Part shown: piece after piece, positions 16,251 to 29,892 of the stretch
How the letters are laid out: the number at the start of each line of letters is the position of its first letter
Numbering within the stretch: the first letter of the stretch is position 1
IMG/VR virus record: IMGVR_UViG_3300001347_000003
Reading direction: 5' to 3' (one strand)
DNA length: 64,000 nucleotides
Origin: a virus
The notes under the pieces: model-generated
Databases searched by the model: none
Told to the model about the DNA's origin: nothing
The model's input: the letters and a program-made list of their open reading frames with translations, nothing else
Translations under genes and position numbers: made by a program

Positions 16251-16414
16251 TGAAATATTGGATTAACGCGATAGGATATGGTATTCCCTCAGCTATACGT
16301 TTAGCGCAAGACGAAGAGCAAAAGGGAAAAAAAATATGGCTGCATTGGTATGGGCGATACGCCTTAAACGTTAGTGCGCTGAAAAAAATTAACTTAATAC
16401 TGAAGAACCGATGA
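16250..16414 (+). CDS. Small basic protein, 54 aa (not in ORF track)
   Basis: MKYWINAIGYGIPSAIRLAQ...LKNR; overlaps neighbours by TAATG and ATGA. Confidence 0.6.
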   Translation: MKYWINAIGYGIPSAIRLAQDEEQKGKKIWLHWYGRYALNVSALKKINLILKNR

Positions 16415-18288
16415 GCGTAAAAATGGACTTTGACCTAGTTGGTAAAGACAACATTACAGGCCCTGTTGAAAAGGCAACTAAATCATTAGATGAGTTACAG
16501 GAAAAAGCAGAAGAAGCAGGAAAAAAAGTTACAAAGGGTGGTAAGGAAGCTAAAAAAGATTGGGAGGGAGTAGCAGATTTATTTGGGGGTTTGTTGCCTA
16601 GGAGTTTAACCAAAACAATACGGCAATTTAAATCTACTAAGCGATCAATTGGAAGGCTTAGTAAAGGATTCAAAGGTTTAAAAAGTGCTATTGCTTCAAC
16701 AGGAATTGGTTTACTTGTAGTTGCTTTAGGAGAGTTAGTTGCTAATTGGGATAAAATTACAGGAGCAATAACAAGGGCATCAAGTGAAACAGAGGATTTA
16801 GTAGCAGAAAATAAAGAGTTAGTTCAAGCAGCAAAAGACCAACTAAGTTATATAACCGACATTGAAAACATCTTACGGCTGCAAGGAAAAACAGAAGAAG
16901 ACATTTTAGCTTATCGTATGCAGGCTACAGACGAGGCAATCGCAGCGCAAAGAATTATGATTGATTCGTTGAAGCAGCAGCAAGAAGAGCAGGTTAAGGC
17001 CGCAGAGACTTCTGAAAAGGTGGCGCAGGCTATGATTGCTCTGCTGTCATTGCCAATTACTTTTGCTCTTGCTGCTATAGATGACATCACAGGGGCGTTG
17101 GCAGAGCTTGGTTTAATGGATGAAGGAACTGATTATTTGCAAGCATACCTTGATGCGGGAACAAAAGCACTTGGTTTGGACGCAGGGAAAATTGCGGAAG
17201 ACGGACAAGAAGCAATTGATGAAGCAGAAGATCAACTTCAACGTTTAGAAAATACACGCGCAGGCTATCAATTACGAGCAAACAAAAACGAAGCAGACGC
17301 AGAAGCTAAGGCACAAAAAGCACGAGATGATGCGGCTAAGAAAAAAGAAGATAATGCTAAATACTTAGCAGATCGGTTACTTCAGATACAGCAAGATATG
17401 TATCTAGCAATGATTGAGGATGACATAACGCAACAAAAGGAAAGGCGCAGATTGCAGTATGAAGCCGACCAAGCAGAACTAAAAGCCAGGGGTGCAACGT
17501 TGAGTCAGTTGTTAGTTTTAAAGCAACAGTATGATATGGATATTGCGGCTATAGACCAACAAGCACAAGACCAAAAGGACGCTAAAGAAAAAGAGCGTTT
17601 AGACAAAGAAGCACAACTGAGAGAGGAGTTGCGGCAAAAAGATTTGACCGATAGGCAGCTAGAAGAAGAAGCGGCTTTTGCTGAATTTCAAAGAAGAGAA
17701 GAATTAGCAGGCACAAATGACGCTTTGGTACTTGAAGCATTTGAAGCATTTCAAAAACAAAAGGAGGCTATAGCAAAGAAGTATAATGAAAAAGAGATTG
17801 AAGACAACCAAGAGGTAATTGACTTAGAGATTCAAGGCAGACAAGCCTTAGCTAAAGGGGTAATGGGTCTCTTTAAGGAGATGGGAAAGTTAGGCGAACA
17901 AAATAGTGAGCAACAAAAAAGATTAGCAATAGCAGACATTTTGTTAAATCAAGCAATAGCAATGTCTTCTGCAATTAGAGGTGCGCAAGCAGCAGCAGCC
18001 GCAACAGGCCCTGCTGCACCTGTAATGACTCCTATTTTTATGGTACAGATGTTAGGAATGGTTTTAGGTGGTTTTGCAAGTATTAAAGGAGTCTTAGCGC
18101 AAGCAGGGACATCGGGAGGTAGTGTAGGCGGCGGTAGTGGTCAAACACGCTCAGGCTTTGCTACGCAGAACACAGCACCTATGCCTGCACGTTTAGACTC
18201 ACCTGATATGCAAGCCTACGTAGTACAAAGTCAATTAGAAGGGCAAGCAATGCAAGCATCACAATTAGCTTCTAAGACTACCCTTTAA
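16411..18288 (+). CDS. Tape measure protein
   Basis: 625 aa, helical and Ala/Gln/Glu-rich, with hydrophobic segments (GIGLLVVALG; IALLSLPITF). Confidence 0.8.
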   Translation: MSVKMDFDLVGKDNITGPVEKATKSLDELQEKAEEAGKKVTKGGKEAKKDWEGVADLFGGLLPRSLTKTIRQFKSTKRSIGRLSKGFKGLKSAIASTGIGLLVVALGELVANWDKITGAITRASSETEDLVAENKELVQAAKDQLSYITDIENILRLQGKTEEDILAYRMQATDEAIAAQRIMIDSLKQQQEEQVKAAETSEKVAQAMIALLSLPITFALAAIDDITGALAELGLMDEGTDYLQAYLDAGTKALGLDAGKIAEDGQEAIDEAEDQLQRLENTRAGYQLRANKNEADAEAKAQKARDDAAKKKEDNAKYLADRLLQIQQDMYLAMIEDDITQQKERRRLQYEADQAELKARGATLSQLLVLKQQYDMDIAAIDQQAQDQKDAKEKERLDKEAQLREELRQKDLTDRQLEEEAAFAEFQRREELAGTNDALVLEAFEAFQKQKEAIAKKYNEKEIEDNQEVIDLEIQGRQALAKGVMGLFKEMGKLGEQNSEQQKRLAIADILLNQAIAMSSAIRGAQAAAAATGPAAPVMTPIFMVQMLGMVLGGFASIKGVLAQAGTSGGSVGGGSGQTRSGFATQNTAPMPARLDSPDMQAYVVQSQLEGQAMQASQLASKTTL

Positions 18289-18296
18289 TTTTACGG

Positions 18297-18328
18297 GTTG
18301 GTGTTACGGTCTTTTATATGTATATTAT
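18297..18328 (+). promoter_or_regulatory. Putative host-polymerase promoter GTTG-N20-TATATT
   Basis: Same architecture as 29167-29196; resembles the Bacteroidota -33 TTTG / -7 TAnnTTTG consensus. Confidence 0.55.
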
Positions 18329-18345
18329 AGACACAGAACTAAGTC

Positions 18346-18639
18346 ATGAAAAAAACAGAACTAGGTTATAACGGTTGGGCAAATCATGCTACTTGGCTTG
18401 TAGCCGTTTGGGAATACATCGATTTGTTTTCAGAAATTTATTTTGAAAATGGCGATAAGCCTGAAGATGTAAGCGAACGAGATGTTGAAGAAATGTTCTA
18501 CGATTATGTCGATAATGAAATTCCTAGTAGCGGTATTATTTCTGACATGGTAAGTAACGCAACGTCAACAATCGATTGGCGGGAAATTACAGAACACGTT
18601 AAGGATCAATTACAAGATAGGATTCTAGATAATTTCTAA
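18346..18639 (+). CDS. Small acidic protein 1
   Basis: 97 aa; YNGWANHATWLVAVW N-terminal motif recalled from widespread phage hypotheticals. Confidence 0.75.
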   Translation: MKKTELGYNGWANHATWLVAVWEYIDLFSEIYFENGDKPEDVSERDVEEMFYDYVDNEIPSSGIISDMVSNATSTIDWREITEHVKDQLQDRILDNF

Positions 18640-18905
18640 TGAACAAGAATCGTATTGTCATGGATTATTATGAGCAATGGGGCGAAGGCTCTGAAGGCTT
18701 GGCTATGGCAATTAGTAACGTGCGCATGGATGATATAAACGCAGTAGGTCACTTAAATAAGCTGCTGAAAAACGCTGAAGAATACGCATACGATGGTAAC
18801 GTATCTTACGTGGAAGATTTGCTTTATGATGCACACGCTGAGGCTATGCTTACTTCCGATCAAGAATGGATTGAGGCGTTGCTAAACCTTACGGCACAAT
18901 ATTAA
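18639..18905 (+). CDS. Small acidic protein 2
   Basis: 88 aa, TAATG-coupled. Confidence 0.7.
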   Translation: MNKNRIVMDYYEQWGEGSEGLAMAISNVRMDDINAVGHLNKLLKNAEEYAYDGNVSYVEDLLYDAHAEAMLTSDQEWIEALLNLTAQY

Positions 18906-18915
18906 AAACAGAGAT

Positions 18916-19134
18916 ATGAGAACAACAGAACAGATTGCTCAACTATTTGAAAACATGGGTTATGTAATTGATTACGTAGTAGGAAACACCATTGAAGTAG
19001 TAAAGTATGACGGCAGCGATTGGACAGACCGAGAATTGGATATGTTATATGATGAAGCAGGTATGTATGACAGCGTTCGAGTAAGTCAAATTTATAATGA
19101 CCCTAGCGTTGCCCAAGTCGAAGTAGGGGTATAA
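18916..19134 (+). CDS. Small acidic protein 3
   Basis: 72 aa, preceded by AAAAACAGAGAT. Confidence 0.7.
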   Translation: MRTTEQIAQLFENMGYVIDYVVGNTIEVVKYDGSDWTDRELDMLYDEAGMYDSVRVSQIYNDPSVAQVEVGV

Positions 19135-19159
19135 CCCAGTTGACGAAAAGAATTAGGAC

Positions 19160-19414
19160 ATGGAATATGAATTGGAAATAAACGTTTACGGACAGGACGA
19201 AGACCACGTAACACGCGAATTGAAAAAAGACGGTTTCTCTGATAATTGGAGCAACAACAACCCTAACGAATATGGGGTACTGTATTTTTACAACGATGGT
19301 GTATACGGAAATTCAGTAGTTGTCACCTTTGTTCTTGAAGAGTACGAAGACCGTTATATCGATGAACTGATTGACTACTTAGAACGGGATCTGAGATGGG
19401 AGATTGGATATTAA
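19160..19414 (+). CDS. Small acidic protein 4
   Basis: 84 aa; about 21 D+E versus 6 K+R by hand count. Confidence 0.7.
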   Translation: MEYELEINVYGQDEDHVTRELKKDGFSDNWSNNNPNEYGVLYFYNDGVYGNSVVVTFVLEEYEDRYIDELIDYLERDLRWEIGY

Positions 19415-19427
19415 AAACAACAGAGAT

Positions 19428-19667
19428 ATGATTGACGATATAATTTACGAGCTTGAAGGAAATGGATATGATGTTACAGATGAGGGAGGCAATACCTTAT
19501 TTGTGAGTGTGTTGGATACTGTATCGCCAGGGCCAGGAGGCATTTACAACATGATGCCAAATGAAAATATGTTGGACGATATTTACGAAACTGCTTCGAT
19601 GTATGCCGCAGTTAATGTATTTATTGACCGTGGAGCGAGAGGTGTAGTGGTAGAAGTTTTACGCTAA
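19428..19667 (+). CDS. Small acidic protein 5 (paralogue of protein 3)
   Basis: ATG at 19428 follows the repeated leader AAAAACAACAGAGAT; preferred to the TTG at 19404. Confidence 0.7.
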   Translation: MIDDIIYELEGNGYDVTDEGGNTLFVSVLDTVSPGPGGIYNMMPNENMLDDIYETASMYAAVNVFIDRGARGVVVEVLR

Positions 19668-19678
19668 ACAACAGAGAT

Positions 19679-19951
19679 ATGCAGGTTTTAAAAAATTTTT
19701 TAAGCGGTGCAACGCAAAGCGAAGCACTAGGTGTAGTTTATTCTTGTTTGGAAGATGCAAATGCGCATTCTGAAAACAGAAAATTAGAACAAGCATTTGG
19801 GAACATTGATTATTCTTATATGCCCTACGACGCTGCGTCACACGTTACAAGTGCCGTTGGTTACAACATAGACGAAGTAATAGATGAACTAATCGATGCT
19901 TTAGATATGACTGGCTTTAGAGATATAGCTGATTTTTTATCGCAATTTTAA
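19679..19951 (+). CDS. Small acidic protein 6
   Basis: 90 aa, preceded by AAACAACAGAGAT. Confidence 0.7.
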   Translation: MQVLKNFLSGATQSEALGVVYSCLEDANAHSENRKLEQAFGNIDYSYMPYDAASHVTSAVGYNIDEVIDELIDALDMTGFRDIADFLSQF

Positions 19952-19954
19952 AAA

Positions 19955-20866
19955 ATGGAGCGCAAACTTGTTGAACTACTTATCGAAGAAGGTTCGAGTG
20001 CATGGGGCGTAGAGGCAATTAGCCTTGTAAAGTTTCCTGCAATCGAAGAGAACTTTGTTTTCTTTAGCAAGGACGGCAACACACGTGCCATGAGTTTAGC
20101 TGCTGTAGACGAAGACCAGCGTACAGTAGTGGGTGCAGCTTTGATTCCTGACAAACACATTCCTAGGATTGACGAAAATACCGATGAAGAATACGATGTG
20201 TACTTCAGTAAGGAAACAGTCAAATTAGCGAGTGAGTTATTTCTAAAGCAGAACCGAACTAACGACCATACTAAAGAGCATCTTGAAAAAGTAGATGATG
20301 TAAGCGTAGTTGAAAGCTGGATCGTAGAAGACCCTGAACTAGACAAAAGCAAAGTATACGGGTTTTCTGTTCCTGAAGGAACATGGATGGTAAAACTTCA
20401 GGTAGCTAACGATGAAGTTTGGAGCGAGATTAAGGAAGGCAAGCTCCGAGGCTTAAGCATCGAGGGCTATTTCTCAGATAAAGTAGAAGAAATGAGTAAG
20501 TCGCTATCTATGAAAAAAGTATTTAAGAAATTGTGGTTTGCTGTCAAGCGTAAATTTTACCAAGAGGTGACGCTAAGTGAAGGCTTTACGATTGCTACTG
20601 AAGATGAAAATCTTACGGCGGGAAGCGTAGTGTTTAAAATCGACGAAGAAGGATTGCCTGCTGAACTTCCTAACGGTAAGTACACTACTGAAGCAGGCGT
20701 AGAACTAGAAGTTTTTGAAGGCGTATTGACAGAGTACGATAACGAAGTAAAGGCAGTCGAAGATGCAGTCGAAGAAACGGAGATGGAAGTAGTAGAATTA
20801 AATCAGCGTAAGGTCAAGTTCTATACAGCGTACCTAAAGCGTAAATACTACAACACCTACGGATGA
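19955..20866 (+). CDS. Prohead protease (XkdF-like) with acidic C-terminal region
   Basis: VVGAALIPD...VVESWIVED...GTWMV...GKLRGLSIEGYF. Confidence 0.8.
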   Translation: MERKLVELLIEEGSSAWGVEAISLVKFPAIEENFVFFSKDGNTRAMSLAAVDEDQRTVVGAALIPDKHIPRIDENTDEEYDVYFSKETVKLASELFLKQNRTNDHTKEHLEKVDDVSVVESWIVEDPELDKSKVYGFSVPEGTWMVKLQVANDEVWSEIKEGKLRGLSIEGYFSDKVEEMSKSLSMKKVFKKLWFAVKRKFYQEVTLSEGFTIATEDENLTAGSVVFKIDEEGLPAELPNGKYTTEAGVELEVFEGVLTEYDNEVKAVEDAVEETEMEVVELNQRKVKFYTAYLKRKYYNTYG

Positions 20867-21129
20867 ATCCTTTAATCGATAGAATTTGGTCTACTTGGAC
20901 AAACACGAGTCAGGAAGAATTGCTTTTAATGCTACGTGAATTTCGGTTTGACTATTTTTTTGAGGACAGTTTTTTACACGCTTTAGACATTGTCGAAGAA
21001 GCAATTTTAGAGGAGGACTACGAACGAGCAATGATTATTTTTCAGGAGATGAAGCCGTCAGGTATTTTTCTGCCGAGGGACTTTGACTTGTTTATGGAAA
21101 TTTTAGACGAAGCCAATTATGGGTATTAA
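20863..21129 (+). CDS. Small acidic hypothetical protein
   Basis: 88 aa, ATGA-coupled to the protease gene. Confidence 0.65.
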   Translation: MNPLIDRIWSTWTNTSQEELLLMLREFRFDYFFEDSFLHALDIVEEAILEEDYERAMIIFQEMKPSGIFLPRDFDLFMEILDEANYGY

Positions 21130-29085: not shown

Positions 29086-29117
29086 CTTGTAAGCGTATTT
29101 TACGTGTTCTTTCTCTG

Positions 29118-29147
29118 AATCCCTGCCTAACGAGGTGGGGATTTTTT
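29118..29147 (+). terminator. Rho-independent terminator at the end of the late operon
   Basis: AATCCCTGCCT-AACG-AGGTGGGGATT stem (two G-U pairs) followed by a T run. Confidence 0.75.
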
Positions 29148-29166
29148 GTGCCTAAATAATTCAAAT

Positions 29167-29198
29167 GTTGCATTATTGATTACTTTACACTATATTCG
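29167..29198 (+). promoter_or_regulatory. Putative early promoter GTTG-N20-TATATTCG (also reads as TTGCAT-N17-TATATT)
   Basis: Between the terminator and the first early gene; near-match to the Bacteroidota -33/-7 consensus. Confidence 0.6.
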
Positions 29199-29892
29199 CG
29201 TTATGAAAAACAACACGATGATATACACAGAAAGAGAACTGTTTAAGCAAACAGAAGTCGAACATTTAGGTCAAGCCGACCTAATAGTATTTGATGCCGC
29301 TAATCCTCAATGCGAAGGTTACGTCCTATTAGGATGGGATGAAGTAGGGATGTTCACACAAGGCATGAAACAACCGCGTTATAGATTTCAAAAGTAAGCA
29401 ACATGAAAAACAACAAAATAGATATTTGGAGAGAAAGTCGGTGGGAGAAACGAGCGATAGACGCTTGGTCTTTGCACGAAGATTTAAAAGAATCGGGTGA
29501 TGACCCTGAATTAGAAATGATGGCAAAGTCATTGCTTGAGAAATGCGAGGCTAAACTAGCAGATTATGCAAGGCTACGACAAATACACGCTAAGACGGTA
29601 GCAGACAATTTTATGCTAGGAATACACAAATTAGTAGAAAGCATTAAGTAATGACACATTATATAGACGTAAGGGAAGGCACACATTTAGAAGTGTCTTA
29701 TAATTATTATCGGTCAGTAACATCGAACGATTACGATGTGCCGCCTGACCCTGAAGAATTTGAAATAGAAAAAATAGAGTTAGTCAGCGATTCAGGCGTT
29801 CGCATGGATATAACGAGTTTGACGGAAGACTTGTTAAACGTCTTGCGATGGGATAAAATCAACGAAGAAATCTTTAACCAACATAATTAAAA

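Follow-up and report, generated by a model that had tools for sequence, protein, structure and literature searches.

A putative accessory array of small acidic genes adjoining the prohead protease gene of a marine phage

The stretch of viral DNA studied here, IMG/VR record IMGVR_UViG_3300001347_000003 (64,000 nucleotides (nt), hereafter the window), is made of 2.19 head-to-tail copies of one 29,189-bp phage genome, and every feature recurs at +29,189. The genome has a guanine-plus-cytosine (GC) content of 41.9% and carries all its genes on the + strand. Small early genes, a replication initiator, a NinG/Rap nuclease, a PAPS-reductase-like protein and a C5 methyltransferase come first, followed by the large terminase subunit and by a tail block with a 1564-amino-acid (aa) fibre-like protein and a 625-aa tape-measure-like protein at its end; the last part comprises six small open reading frames (ORFs), an XkdF-type prohead protease, the small gene o7, a scaffold-like protein, the major capsid protein and the portal. 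The six small ORFs, here o1 to o6 (18346-19951), are the subject of this work. A previous sequence-only reading described them as a separately promoted, early-expressed cassette of very acidic proteins in the middle of the morphogenesis genes, serving in host takeover or anti-defence or, alternatively, as internal capsid proteins. The six consecutive ORFs of 72-97 aa indeed lie between the tape-measure and protease genes, and the hand counts of that reading are exact (21 D+E against 6 K+R in the ORF at 19160, 14 against 4 in that at 18916), while their placement is better worded as the boundary between the tail block and the head block of protease, scaffold, capsid and portal. Comparison with relatives indicates that a hypervariable accessory region flanks the prohead-protease gene and that these ORFs are what it contains in the window phage. 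On balance, we lean towards a counter-defence or host-interaction array that is co-expressed with the head operon.

Organization of the array and its linker

The left flank is the tape-measure-like gene (16411-18288, on the + strand as are all features below), the last of the tail block, which matches phrog_1538 (4.6e-9) and phrog_24676 (6.4e-8) and has homologues in 74 related loci; 80 related loci were retrieved from IMG/VR by means of the protease. A 57-nt intergenic element (18289-18345) with an AT-rich box (TATATGTATATTATAG) follows, and is a candidate promoter or regulatory site of the head operon. Behind it come o1 (18346-18639; 97 aa, isoelectric point (pI) 4.10), a putative helical protein of the DUF7249 family, and o2 (18639-18905; 88 aa, pI 4.18), whose start overlaps the stop of o1 (TAATG). 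The first linker copy (TAAAAACAGAGATATG, two mismatches, 18903-18918) joins o2 to o3 (18916-19134; 72 aa, pI 4.05), a predicted permuted ferredoxin-like domain and distant paralogue of o5. An atypical 25-nt junction (19135-19159), devoid of the linker, precedes o4 (19160-19414; 84 aa), an orphan with a predicted ferredoxin-like fold. The second copy, an exact AAACAACAGAGATATG (19415-19430), joins o4 to o5 (19428-19667; 79 aa), and the third, the canonical TAAACAACAGAGATATG (19665-19681), joins o5 to the fast-evolving o6 (19679-19951; 90 aa, pI 4.05). Neither o2 nor o6 belongs to a known family, with no match in Pfam or PHROGs. Three nucleotides separate o6 from the protease gene (19955-20866; 303 aa), the right flank, whose product matches Peptidase_S78_2 (1.1e-17) and phrog_3017, a head maturation protease. 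The following gene, o7 (20863-21129; 88 aa), lies between protease and scaffold and is as acidic as the array; with homologues in 34 loci and a ratio of nonsynonymous to synonymous substitution rates (dN/dS) of 0.03, it is a conserved core gene and not a cassette.

The fifth ORF was listed at 19404-19667, 87 aa when read from TTG 19404. Since the conserved linker stands before ATG 19428, this ATG is almost certainly the true start, and the reading from TTG merely translates the linker (IKNNRDM). The six proteins have pI values of 4.05-4.18 and net charges of -12 to -18 per 100 aa, and together with the products of 462-701 and 20863-21129 they are the most acidic of the genome, whose early-region proteins are mostly basic. 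A foreign origin of the cassette by base composition was considered and dropped, the difference between its 38.5% GC and the 41.9% of the genome being too small.

The linker has the form TAA-ACAACAGAGAT-ATG, with a fixed spacing of 11 nt between stop and start. In the window AAACAACAGAGATATG is found at 18903 (with two mismatches), 19415 and 19666, that is, at 3 sites per genome copy, where 0.12 would be expected in the whole window, and none of 100 shuffles reached the observed count, so the repeated junction motif of the sequence-only reading is real. It precedes nearly every cassette that lies before the protease in the clade of the window and does not precede core genes, apart from the protease gene in many phages. 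Allowing up to two mismatches, the linker stands before 62/111 small acidic ORFs against 7/146 others in 12 genomes (Fisher p 6e-21, a descriptive value, as the loci of these genomes are related and non-independent). Its conservation ends sharply at the T of the upstream TAA, which is at -14 in 139/160 upstream regions. The exact 17-mer occurs in 66 IMG/VR stretches, many of them with 3-7 copies spaced 165-300 nt, and a single 17-mer can thus be used as a search key that leads to 66 viral contigs. A sister clade (L008-L011, e.g. L008:5000-5992) has the variant TAAAACAACTTAAAG-ATG; most of its cassettes follow the protease, with overlapping genes and no linker.

Turnover of the region in related phages

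The content of the array differs between phages whose proteases are almost identical. In L001 (protease 99-100% identical) o1, o2, o3 and o6 are kept and four other genes replace o4 and o5; in L002 (92%) o3 is the sole shared array gene, and in L003 and L014 (93%) it is o1. Among 21 distinct loci with all three markers, 0-11 ORFs precede the protease and 1-14 lie between it and the capsid gene, two of the latter being core ORFs in close relatives of the window (o7 and the scaffold) and one in cassette-free relatives; relatives thus have up to about 12 hotspot genes behind the protease. More distant relatives (protease 44-56% identical) have zero cassettes, and there the stop of the tape-measure gene abuts the start of the protease gene. 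The comparison across relatives that had been proposed for the cassette content thus shows it to be far from invariant, and the distribution indicates an acquired, clade-specific hotspot that flanks the protease gene on either side.

The positions at which homology breaks are informative about the units exchanged. The nucleotide alignment of the window with L001 is interrupted after 19134, where the o3 stop codon closes and the atypical junction begins, and homology returns at 19665, where the linker between o5 and o6 starts; with L014 the last homologous base before the gap is 18643 and the first one after it is 19955, and with L002 the only piece in common inside the array is 18913-19134, which corresponds to o3. 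Furthermore, a homologue of o4 that is 87% identical is found in L148, a phage with a protease of just 53% identity; it lies there behind the protease, the gene order being protease, 94 aa, ArdA, 74 aa, o4, 98 aa, 82 aa, 76 aa, o7, scaffold. Homologues of o2 (51-67% identity) likewise lie directly after the protease in L091 and L112. These alignments show cassettes exchanged as exact ORF units, with breakpoints at the ORF edges. Recombination at the stop-linker-start joint TAA-ACAACAGAGAT-ATG would then produce gain, loss and permutation of cassettes. The linker, rich in A and without a Shine-Dalgarno core of the GGAGG type, is placed in the 11 nt after the stop codon; since messenger RNAs of Bacteroidetes likewise lack Shine-Dalgarno sequences (PMC6847099), it may double as a re-initiation site for a Bacteroidota host.

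Two known kinds of modular gene arrangement were compared with this joint. The early-promoter and stem-loop terminator units (PeSLs) of T4-type phages accompany modular shuffling in hyperplastic regions (Arbiol et al. 2010, PMC2839356; Comeau et al. 2014, PMC4122927). As in the hotspot, a short conserved intergenic motif stands between non-essential orphan genes and rearrangements end at the motif; however, a PeSL gene is its own transcription unit, whereas the hotspot linker has 11 nt and neither promoter nor hairpin, and implies a single polycistronic, translationally coupled message. With junctions of 11-13 nt, no promoter plus terminator is found between the genes, and a PeSL-like mechanism was set aside. 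An integron-like mechanism was set aside as well, its defining features, an attC site per cassette and an adjacent integrase, being absent: the 11-nt linker has no imperfect inverted repeat, and no integrase appeared in PHROG scans of the larger proteins of the phage, about ten smaller ORFs being outside these scans. The stop-linker-start joint would therefore be a very simple natural cassette system, one that needs neither an integrase nor a promoter/terminator unit.

Unique proteins preceded by the linker (n = 187) have a median length of 79 aa; for 86% of them the net charge per 100 aa is below -8, and for 1% it is positive. They form 79 families by BLAST or 84 by profile, with 39 singletons, and nearly all hotspot families are of 50-100 aa and strongly acidic. 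The largest profile cluster (37 members) has a beta-alpha-beta-beta-alpha-beta pattern, as judged by eye. Only two of the 84 family representatives match Pfam, both with domains of unknown function. One cassette family matches DUF3846 at 2.3e-13; ten long candidates were tested, and none of them is the member that gives this match. As a side observation, the proteins of 44/84 families end in Y, I or F (0.63 bits, where random columns reach at most 0.37), in agreement with the weakly conserved codon before the linker TAA (TAC, ATT, TTC); this ending may be a feature of the fold or an extension of the linker.

A longer, mildly acidic family of 268-278 aa, without a Pfam match and absent from the window, also lives in the hotspot. 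It is a linker-flanked cassette before the protease in L002:4157-4978, L014:4036-4857 and L006:3714-4532, and has a fixed slot between o7 and the scaffold in L112:7387-8223 and L109:4764-5576. The Atlas model of a 273-aa hotspot protein is poor (predicted template modelling score (pTM) 0.39) and weakly resembles virion proteins.

The nearest isolates are the Nonlabens phages P12024S and P12024L, reached only by the protease and the portal at 30-37% identity, and searches of the array region and the capsid protein against cultured phages (megablast, tblastn) gave no match. A relative with a capsid protein 74% identical was found inside a Flavobacteriaceae metagenome-assembled genome. The clade consists of marine siphophages of roughly 27-30 kb that probably infect Flavobacteriaceae. 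At least 83% of the sampled words of the array are present in 16 marine DNA runs, and the 24 runs listed in all come from 14 studies dated 2014-2025.

Families, predicted folds and selection

The most conserved member of the array is o1, which usually occupies the first slot. It scores under the gathering cut-off against Pfam DUF7249 (PF23907; E 3.3e-4, 22 bits, cut-off 27) and matches phrog_871 (9.4e-7). In precomputed annotation PF23907 is carried by its 95%-identical cluster representative and by three further homologues; additionally, a profile of the o1 family matched 3079 representative clusters, and 10/10 of the matches checked score 28.6-45.9 bits. It is very likely, from these profile matches, that o1 is a member of DUF7249, a family without known function; in a literature search DUF7249 did not appear, and DUF3846 was mentioned once in passing. 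The AlphaFold2 (AF2) model of o1 has four helices (predicted local distance difference test (pLDDT) 74), and searches of this model against PDB and AFDB clusters gave nothing at E <=0.001. Its dN/dS is 0.06 (against L014). In unrelated phage contigs (L154-L157), DUF7249 genes adjoin a PD-(D/E)XK / DUF3799 exonuclease, and in one case a uracil-DNA glycosylase, in early or recombination regions that recall the gam-bet-exo neighbourhood of lambda. By this analogy, the setting is no more than a hint of an anti-nuclease role.

The AF2 model of o3 (pLDDT 93, pTM 0.79) has the order alpha-beta-beta-alpha-beta-beta, that of a permuted ferredoxin-like domain. Its best structural matches (Z 6.5-7.2) are cap domains of the haloacid dehalogenase superfamily, periplasmic domains of type II secretion GspL/M and a circular permutant of S6, all of them generic; in searches against PDB, in a PDB-wide VIA-align search and in BFVD it retrieved generic two-layer alpha/beta folds and unnamed phage proteins, with no named anti-defence protein among the matches listed. 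Profile clustering puts o3 and o5 in one family (pairwise BLASTP E 0.007), so that the permuted ferredoxin-like fold is assigned to o5 as well; the dN/dS of o3 is 0.11-0.39. For o4, the ESM Atlas model (pTM 0.91) is ferredoxin-like, with template modelling (TM) scores of 0.65-0.68 to FDX-ACB domains; it has no homologue in 146 related loci, and two near-identical clusters are its only relatives among 5.8 billion proteins. The folds of o3 and o4 are thus well defined as models.

A nine-member family in relatives contains o6, for which ESM Atlas gave no model or usable match. Its dN/dS is 0.30 against L094; against L131:6715-6984, 79% identical, it is 1.14 at a dS of 0.12, in a single pair of 90 codons, which points to relaxed or positive selection. 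Purifying selection is shown for o1 and o3. As a separate observation, the stop of o6 is in frame with the start of the protease gene and one codon apart (TTT TAA AAA ATG, 19946-19957), within an A/T run (TTTTAAAAAATG), so that read-through of this stop would give a purely hypothetical o6-protease fusion.

Contigs from RNA libraries that are 100% identical to the window cover 18645-18881, 19265-19616 and 19487-19705 (two metatranscriptome runs), and two more (19763-20016 and 19778-20043) span the junction of o6 and the protease; as contigs, with DNA carry-over possible and with starts, strand and timing unreadable, they were used for presence only. Because of the dN/dS values of o1 and o3, the confident folds of o3 and o4 and the presence in RNA libraries, the array ORFs are real genes with folded products, some of which evolve fast.

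Counter-defence reading and its alternatives

ArdA proteins (PF07275) are DNA mimics of conjugative elements. The one hotspot resident of known function, an ArdA of 237-244 aa with a net charge of -18 per 100 aa, is found in the hotspot of about 20 loci, with scores of 1.9e-9 against PF07275 (38.8 bits, cut-off 27) and 1.6e-9 against the anti-restriction phrog_2059. In L002 it takes the first slot, that of o1, behind the same intergenic element, and in L148 it lies two genes upstream of the close homologue of o4. We infer a counter-defence function for the array because it shares its hotspot with ArdA; how the proteins would act (as binders or mimics), what the linker does and when the array is expressed are proposals of the same kind. 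In this sense, each cassette would encode one small, stably folded, strongly acidic domain that would act as a stoichiometric binder or decoy and block a host protein, the likeliest targets being DNA-directed defence enzymes, as for the DNA mimic that shares the hotspot. The turnover, the more than 80 families, the small acidic domains and the relaxed or positive selection on some members would place the region among counter-defence accessory regions. The window proteins resemble ArdA in their extreme acidity, and Ocr and ArdA have a pI of ~4 (bioRxiv 10.1101/2023.04.06.535777). Unlike ArdA, they are single-domain proteins of 72-97 aa and are not its homologues: the six ORFs gave no match to the ArdA profile up to E 1, and ArdA proteins of relatives found nothing below E 9 in the window by tblastn. 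A phmmer search of the ArdA of relatives among PDB sequences gave no match.

Several points weigh against this reading. The window phage itself has no ArdA, and therefore the functional call is one of guilt by association. As the sequence-only reading already stated, no function is recognised for any of the six proteins: none matches a protein of known function, Pfam and PHROGs giving DUF7249 and phrog_871 for o1 only, and structure searches yield generic folds only. Acidity alone is weak evidence, since the conserved core gene o7 is equally acidic, as scaffolding proteins usually are. A phage usually needs counter-defence proteins early, whereas the layout suggests that the array is co-expressed with late head genes. 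In addition, the role of the linker in recombination comes from the positions of the breakpoints, and the linker could be purely a translation or regulatory signal.

By analogy, the closest layout is the anti-CRISPR locus of Mu-like Pseudomonas phages, a mix-and-match locus directly upstream of the protease/scaffold gene (PMC3993853). The acr-aca locus of JBD30, D3112 and related phages of Pseudomonas aeruginosa (Pawluk et al. 2014, PMC3993853) has in common with the hotspot its variable, small, unrelated genes at a fixed site of the head block upstream of protease/scaffold, its conserved upstream sequence and a content that differs between near-identical phages. However, an aca regulator with a helix-turn-helix downstream of the array is absent from the hotspot, and basic proteins are all but missing: the window array encodes neither kind, and 0/84 representatives match a DNA-binding family. 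The arrays are also far longer (up to 11-14 genes), uniformly acidic and joined by a fixed 11-nt linker; the host probably belongs to Flavobacteriaceae, and the known resident, ArdA, acts against type I restriction and not against CRISPR. Hotspot members have no match to named anti-CRISPR families in Pfam or PHROGs, the two collections searched, no dedicated anti-CRISPR library being among them. Phage accessory regions, which cluster variable anti-defence genes (Silas et al., bioRxiv 10.1101/2023.04.06.535777), are alike in being hypervariable clusters between conserved flanks with a known counter-defence factor and many unknowns, and the hotspot has both the hypervariable content between conserved flanks and, in ArdA, the known counter-defence resident. 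That concept comes from enterobacterial phages, whereas here the region flanks the protease, has a dedicated linker and shows recurrent protease fusions. The phage accessory region itself is thus a known thing; the linker-joined cassettes and the protease fusions are the unusual features.

The fusions bear on the best-surviving alternative, which overlaps with the counter-defence reading and differs in place and time of action: the proteins may be cargo of the capsid, made with the head proteins, packed via the protease or fused to it, and ejected with the DNA. We regard this as possible, although unlikely. T4 internal proteins (IPI*, IPII, IPIII) and P1 Dar proteins are packaged in the capsid and injected, with anti-restriction roles, and prohead proteases become built into procapsids. 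Four hotspot proteins, ArdA included, are fused in frame to the C-terminus of the protease. The protease-ArdA fusion is one 544-aa ORF (Peptidase_S78_2 6.4e-17 and a C-terminal ArdA with 35.8 bits, cut-off 27) found in two independent assemblies (L095:16-1650 on the - strand and L097:11777-13411) with 99.96% identity over 8.3 kb; its junction is clean, with a short linker in place of the usual basic C-terminal tail of the protease. The others join the protease to a K28-like domain that is 77% identical to a free-standing cassette (L122:10344-11546), to a c139/c071-like cassette domain at 58% identity, reading through a mutated linker (LNNEDM; L143:12532-13764), and to DUF7249, the o1 family, in a TARA contig (L153:931-2136, P0011). 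These three come from one contig apiece and may be artefacts of insertions or deletions at overlapping gene ends.

The hotspot also invariably adjoins the protease gene on one side or the other; cassettes after the protease, ArdA too, overlap at their start and stop with the neighbouring protease and o7 genes; and an anti-restriction protein produced late is easiest to understand as one loaded into the capsid in advance. The likeness to T4 internal proteins lies in small polymorphic proteins linked to the prohead protease/core, where the anti-restriction role explains late synthesis. However, in T4 the internal proteins are targeted to the capsid by an N-terminal sequence that is cut by the prohead protease, whereas residues 2-15 of 84 representatives show no common motif at any position (<=0.37 bits, as high as random columns reach), although a signal that is C-terminal or not tied to a position is possible; the link in the hotspot is gene adjacency and C-terminal fusion. 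Moreover, strongly acidic proteins are expected to be expelled by the incoming DNA, as scaffolds are, and proteases of the HK97 type digest themselves. A complex prediction of the protease with o1 gave no answer (score 0.00) and counts neither way. IpII is mentioned among the proteins of the accessory-region study (bioRxiv 10.1101/2023.04.06.535777). The internal-capsid alternative of the sequence-only reading hence gains some support from the fusions and loses on the targeting motif. The anti-defence and internal-capsid ideas may even be one and the same, if anti-defence proteins are delivered by the capsid. In a fuller and equally tentative form, interchangeable acidic proteins including ArdA would be packed via the protease, injected, and disarm defences before any phage gene is expressed; it is just as doubtful, if conceivable, that the 11-nt linker makes of them a plug-and-play cassette system. 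A separate observation on the protease concerns L015:5995-7332 (also L128), where a 445-aa protease has an extra segment of ~130 aa after the catalytic domain (NAKRALEW...GWGSCGT...), which has no match in Pfam and is partly common to L007.

Returning to the counter-defence array co-expressed with the head genes, its transcription has to be weighed against an early host-takeover or anti-defence operon with its own early promoter at ~18297-18326, which we consider improbable. The 57-nt gap before o1 is among the few real gaps of the late region and holds TTGGTG-N17-TATATT, a similar GTTG-N20-TATATT at 29167 follows a terminator-like hairpin and precedes the first small genes, and DUF7249 genes of other phages are found in early or recombination regions. 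The GTTG-N20-TATATT motif does occur at both 18297 and 29167, as had been noted, but 7/100 shuffles give as many matches, which is within chance. A sigma-70 scan made no + strand call at the 18297 site, and a sigma-70 promoter there was rejected; a Bacteroidota host would not use the sigma-70 consensus anyway, and the sigma-70-type calls inside the array fall in coding sequence (promoter-like 19405-19432 and 19444-19472).

The core of the 57-nt element (ACxGG..TATAT..GTAxATT) is conserved in 13/13 aligned relatives. Because it is kept where no acidic cassette follows, namely in L012, where the protease comes directly, and in L013, where a single non-acidic ORF does, its alignment places the element with the module boundary rather than with the cassette. 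At the o6/protease junction there is no terminator-like site, the sole + strand call in the array being weak and inside o4 at 19260. In many relatives the protease start itself carries the cassette linker, and a population variant, a marine metagenome DNA contig, has the linker directly before 19955. Since the element is unlinked to the cassette, no terminator intervenes, the gap to the protease is of 3 nt, proteases bear linkers and cassettes overlap their neighbours, the array is most likely the 5' part of the head operon, transcribed from the conserved element after the tape-measure gene. The separate promoter that had been proposed is accordingly not borne out and early expression has no support, so that of the anti-defence proposal an accessory, non-structural array sharing its hotspot with ArdA stands, without a dedicated early promoter.

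Morphogenetic helpers or structural accessories without an anti-defence role (scaffold-like chaperones, decoration or charge-balancing internal peptides) are the least probable explanation: the block does lie inside the virion-gene region, its acidity is like that of scaffolds and of the core protein o7, and the weakly virion-like 273-aa hotspot member, with its poor model, has the conserved o7-scaffold slot in some lineages, but more than 80 unrelated families occupy one position, the content turns over between phages with 92-100% identical proteases, the array is wholly absent from relatives with the same capsid genes, and ArdA is among the residents.

Marine Flavobacteriia have a major part in the degradation of algal organic matter, and to our knowledge almost nothing is known of how their phages overcome host immunity. 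The hotspot supplies more than 80 compact families of 50-100 aa, many with confident predicted folds, flagged by the same logic that yielded anti-CRISPRs and with ArdA as an internal positive control. Furthermore, the protease fusions make the pre-loading of capsids with anti-restriction proteins by a siphophage a directly testable idea.

Two observations concern transcription elsewhere in the genome. A TATATAG-type box as a general late-promoter motif was dropped, with 3 occurrences per genome against 3.8 expected. At 29100-29200 of the window, a terminator-like hairpin with a T-run (AATCCCTGCC...GGGGATTTTTT) closes the long series of + strand genes and is followed at 29168-29196 by TTGCAT-N17-TATATT, a plausible early promoter; the two likely mark the end and the start of transcription on the circular map.

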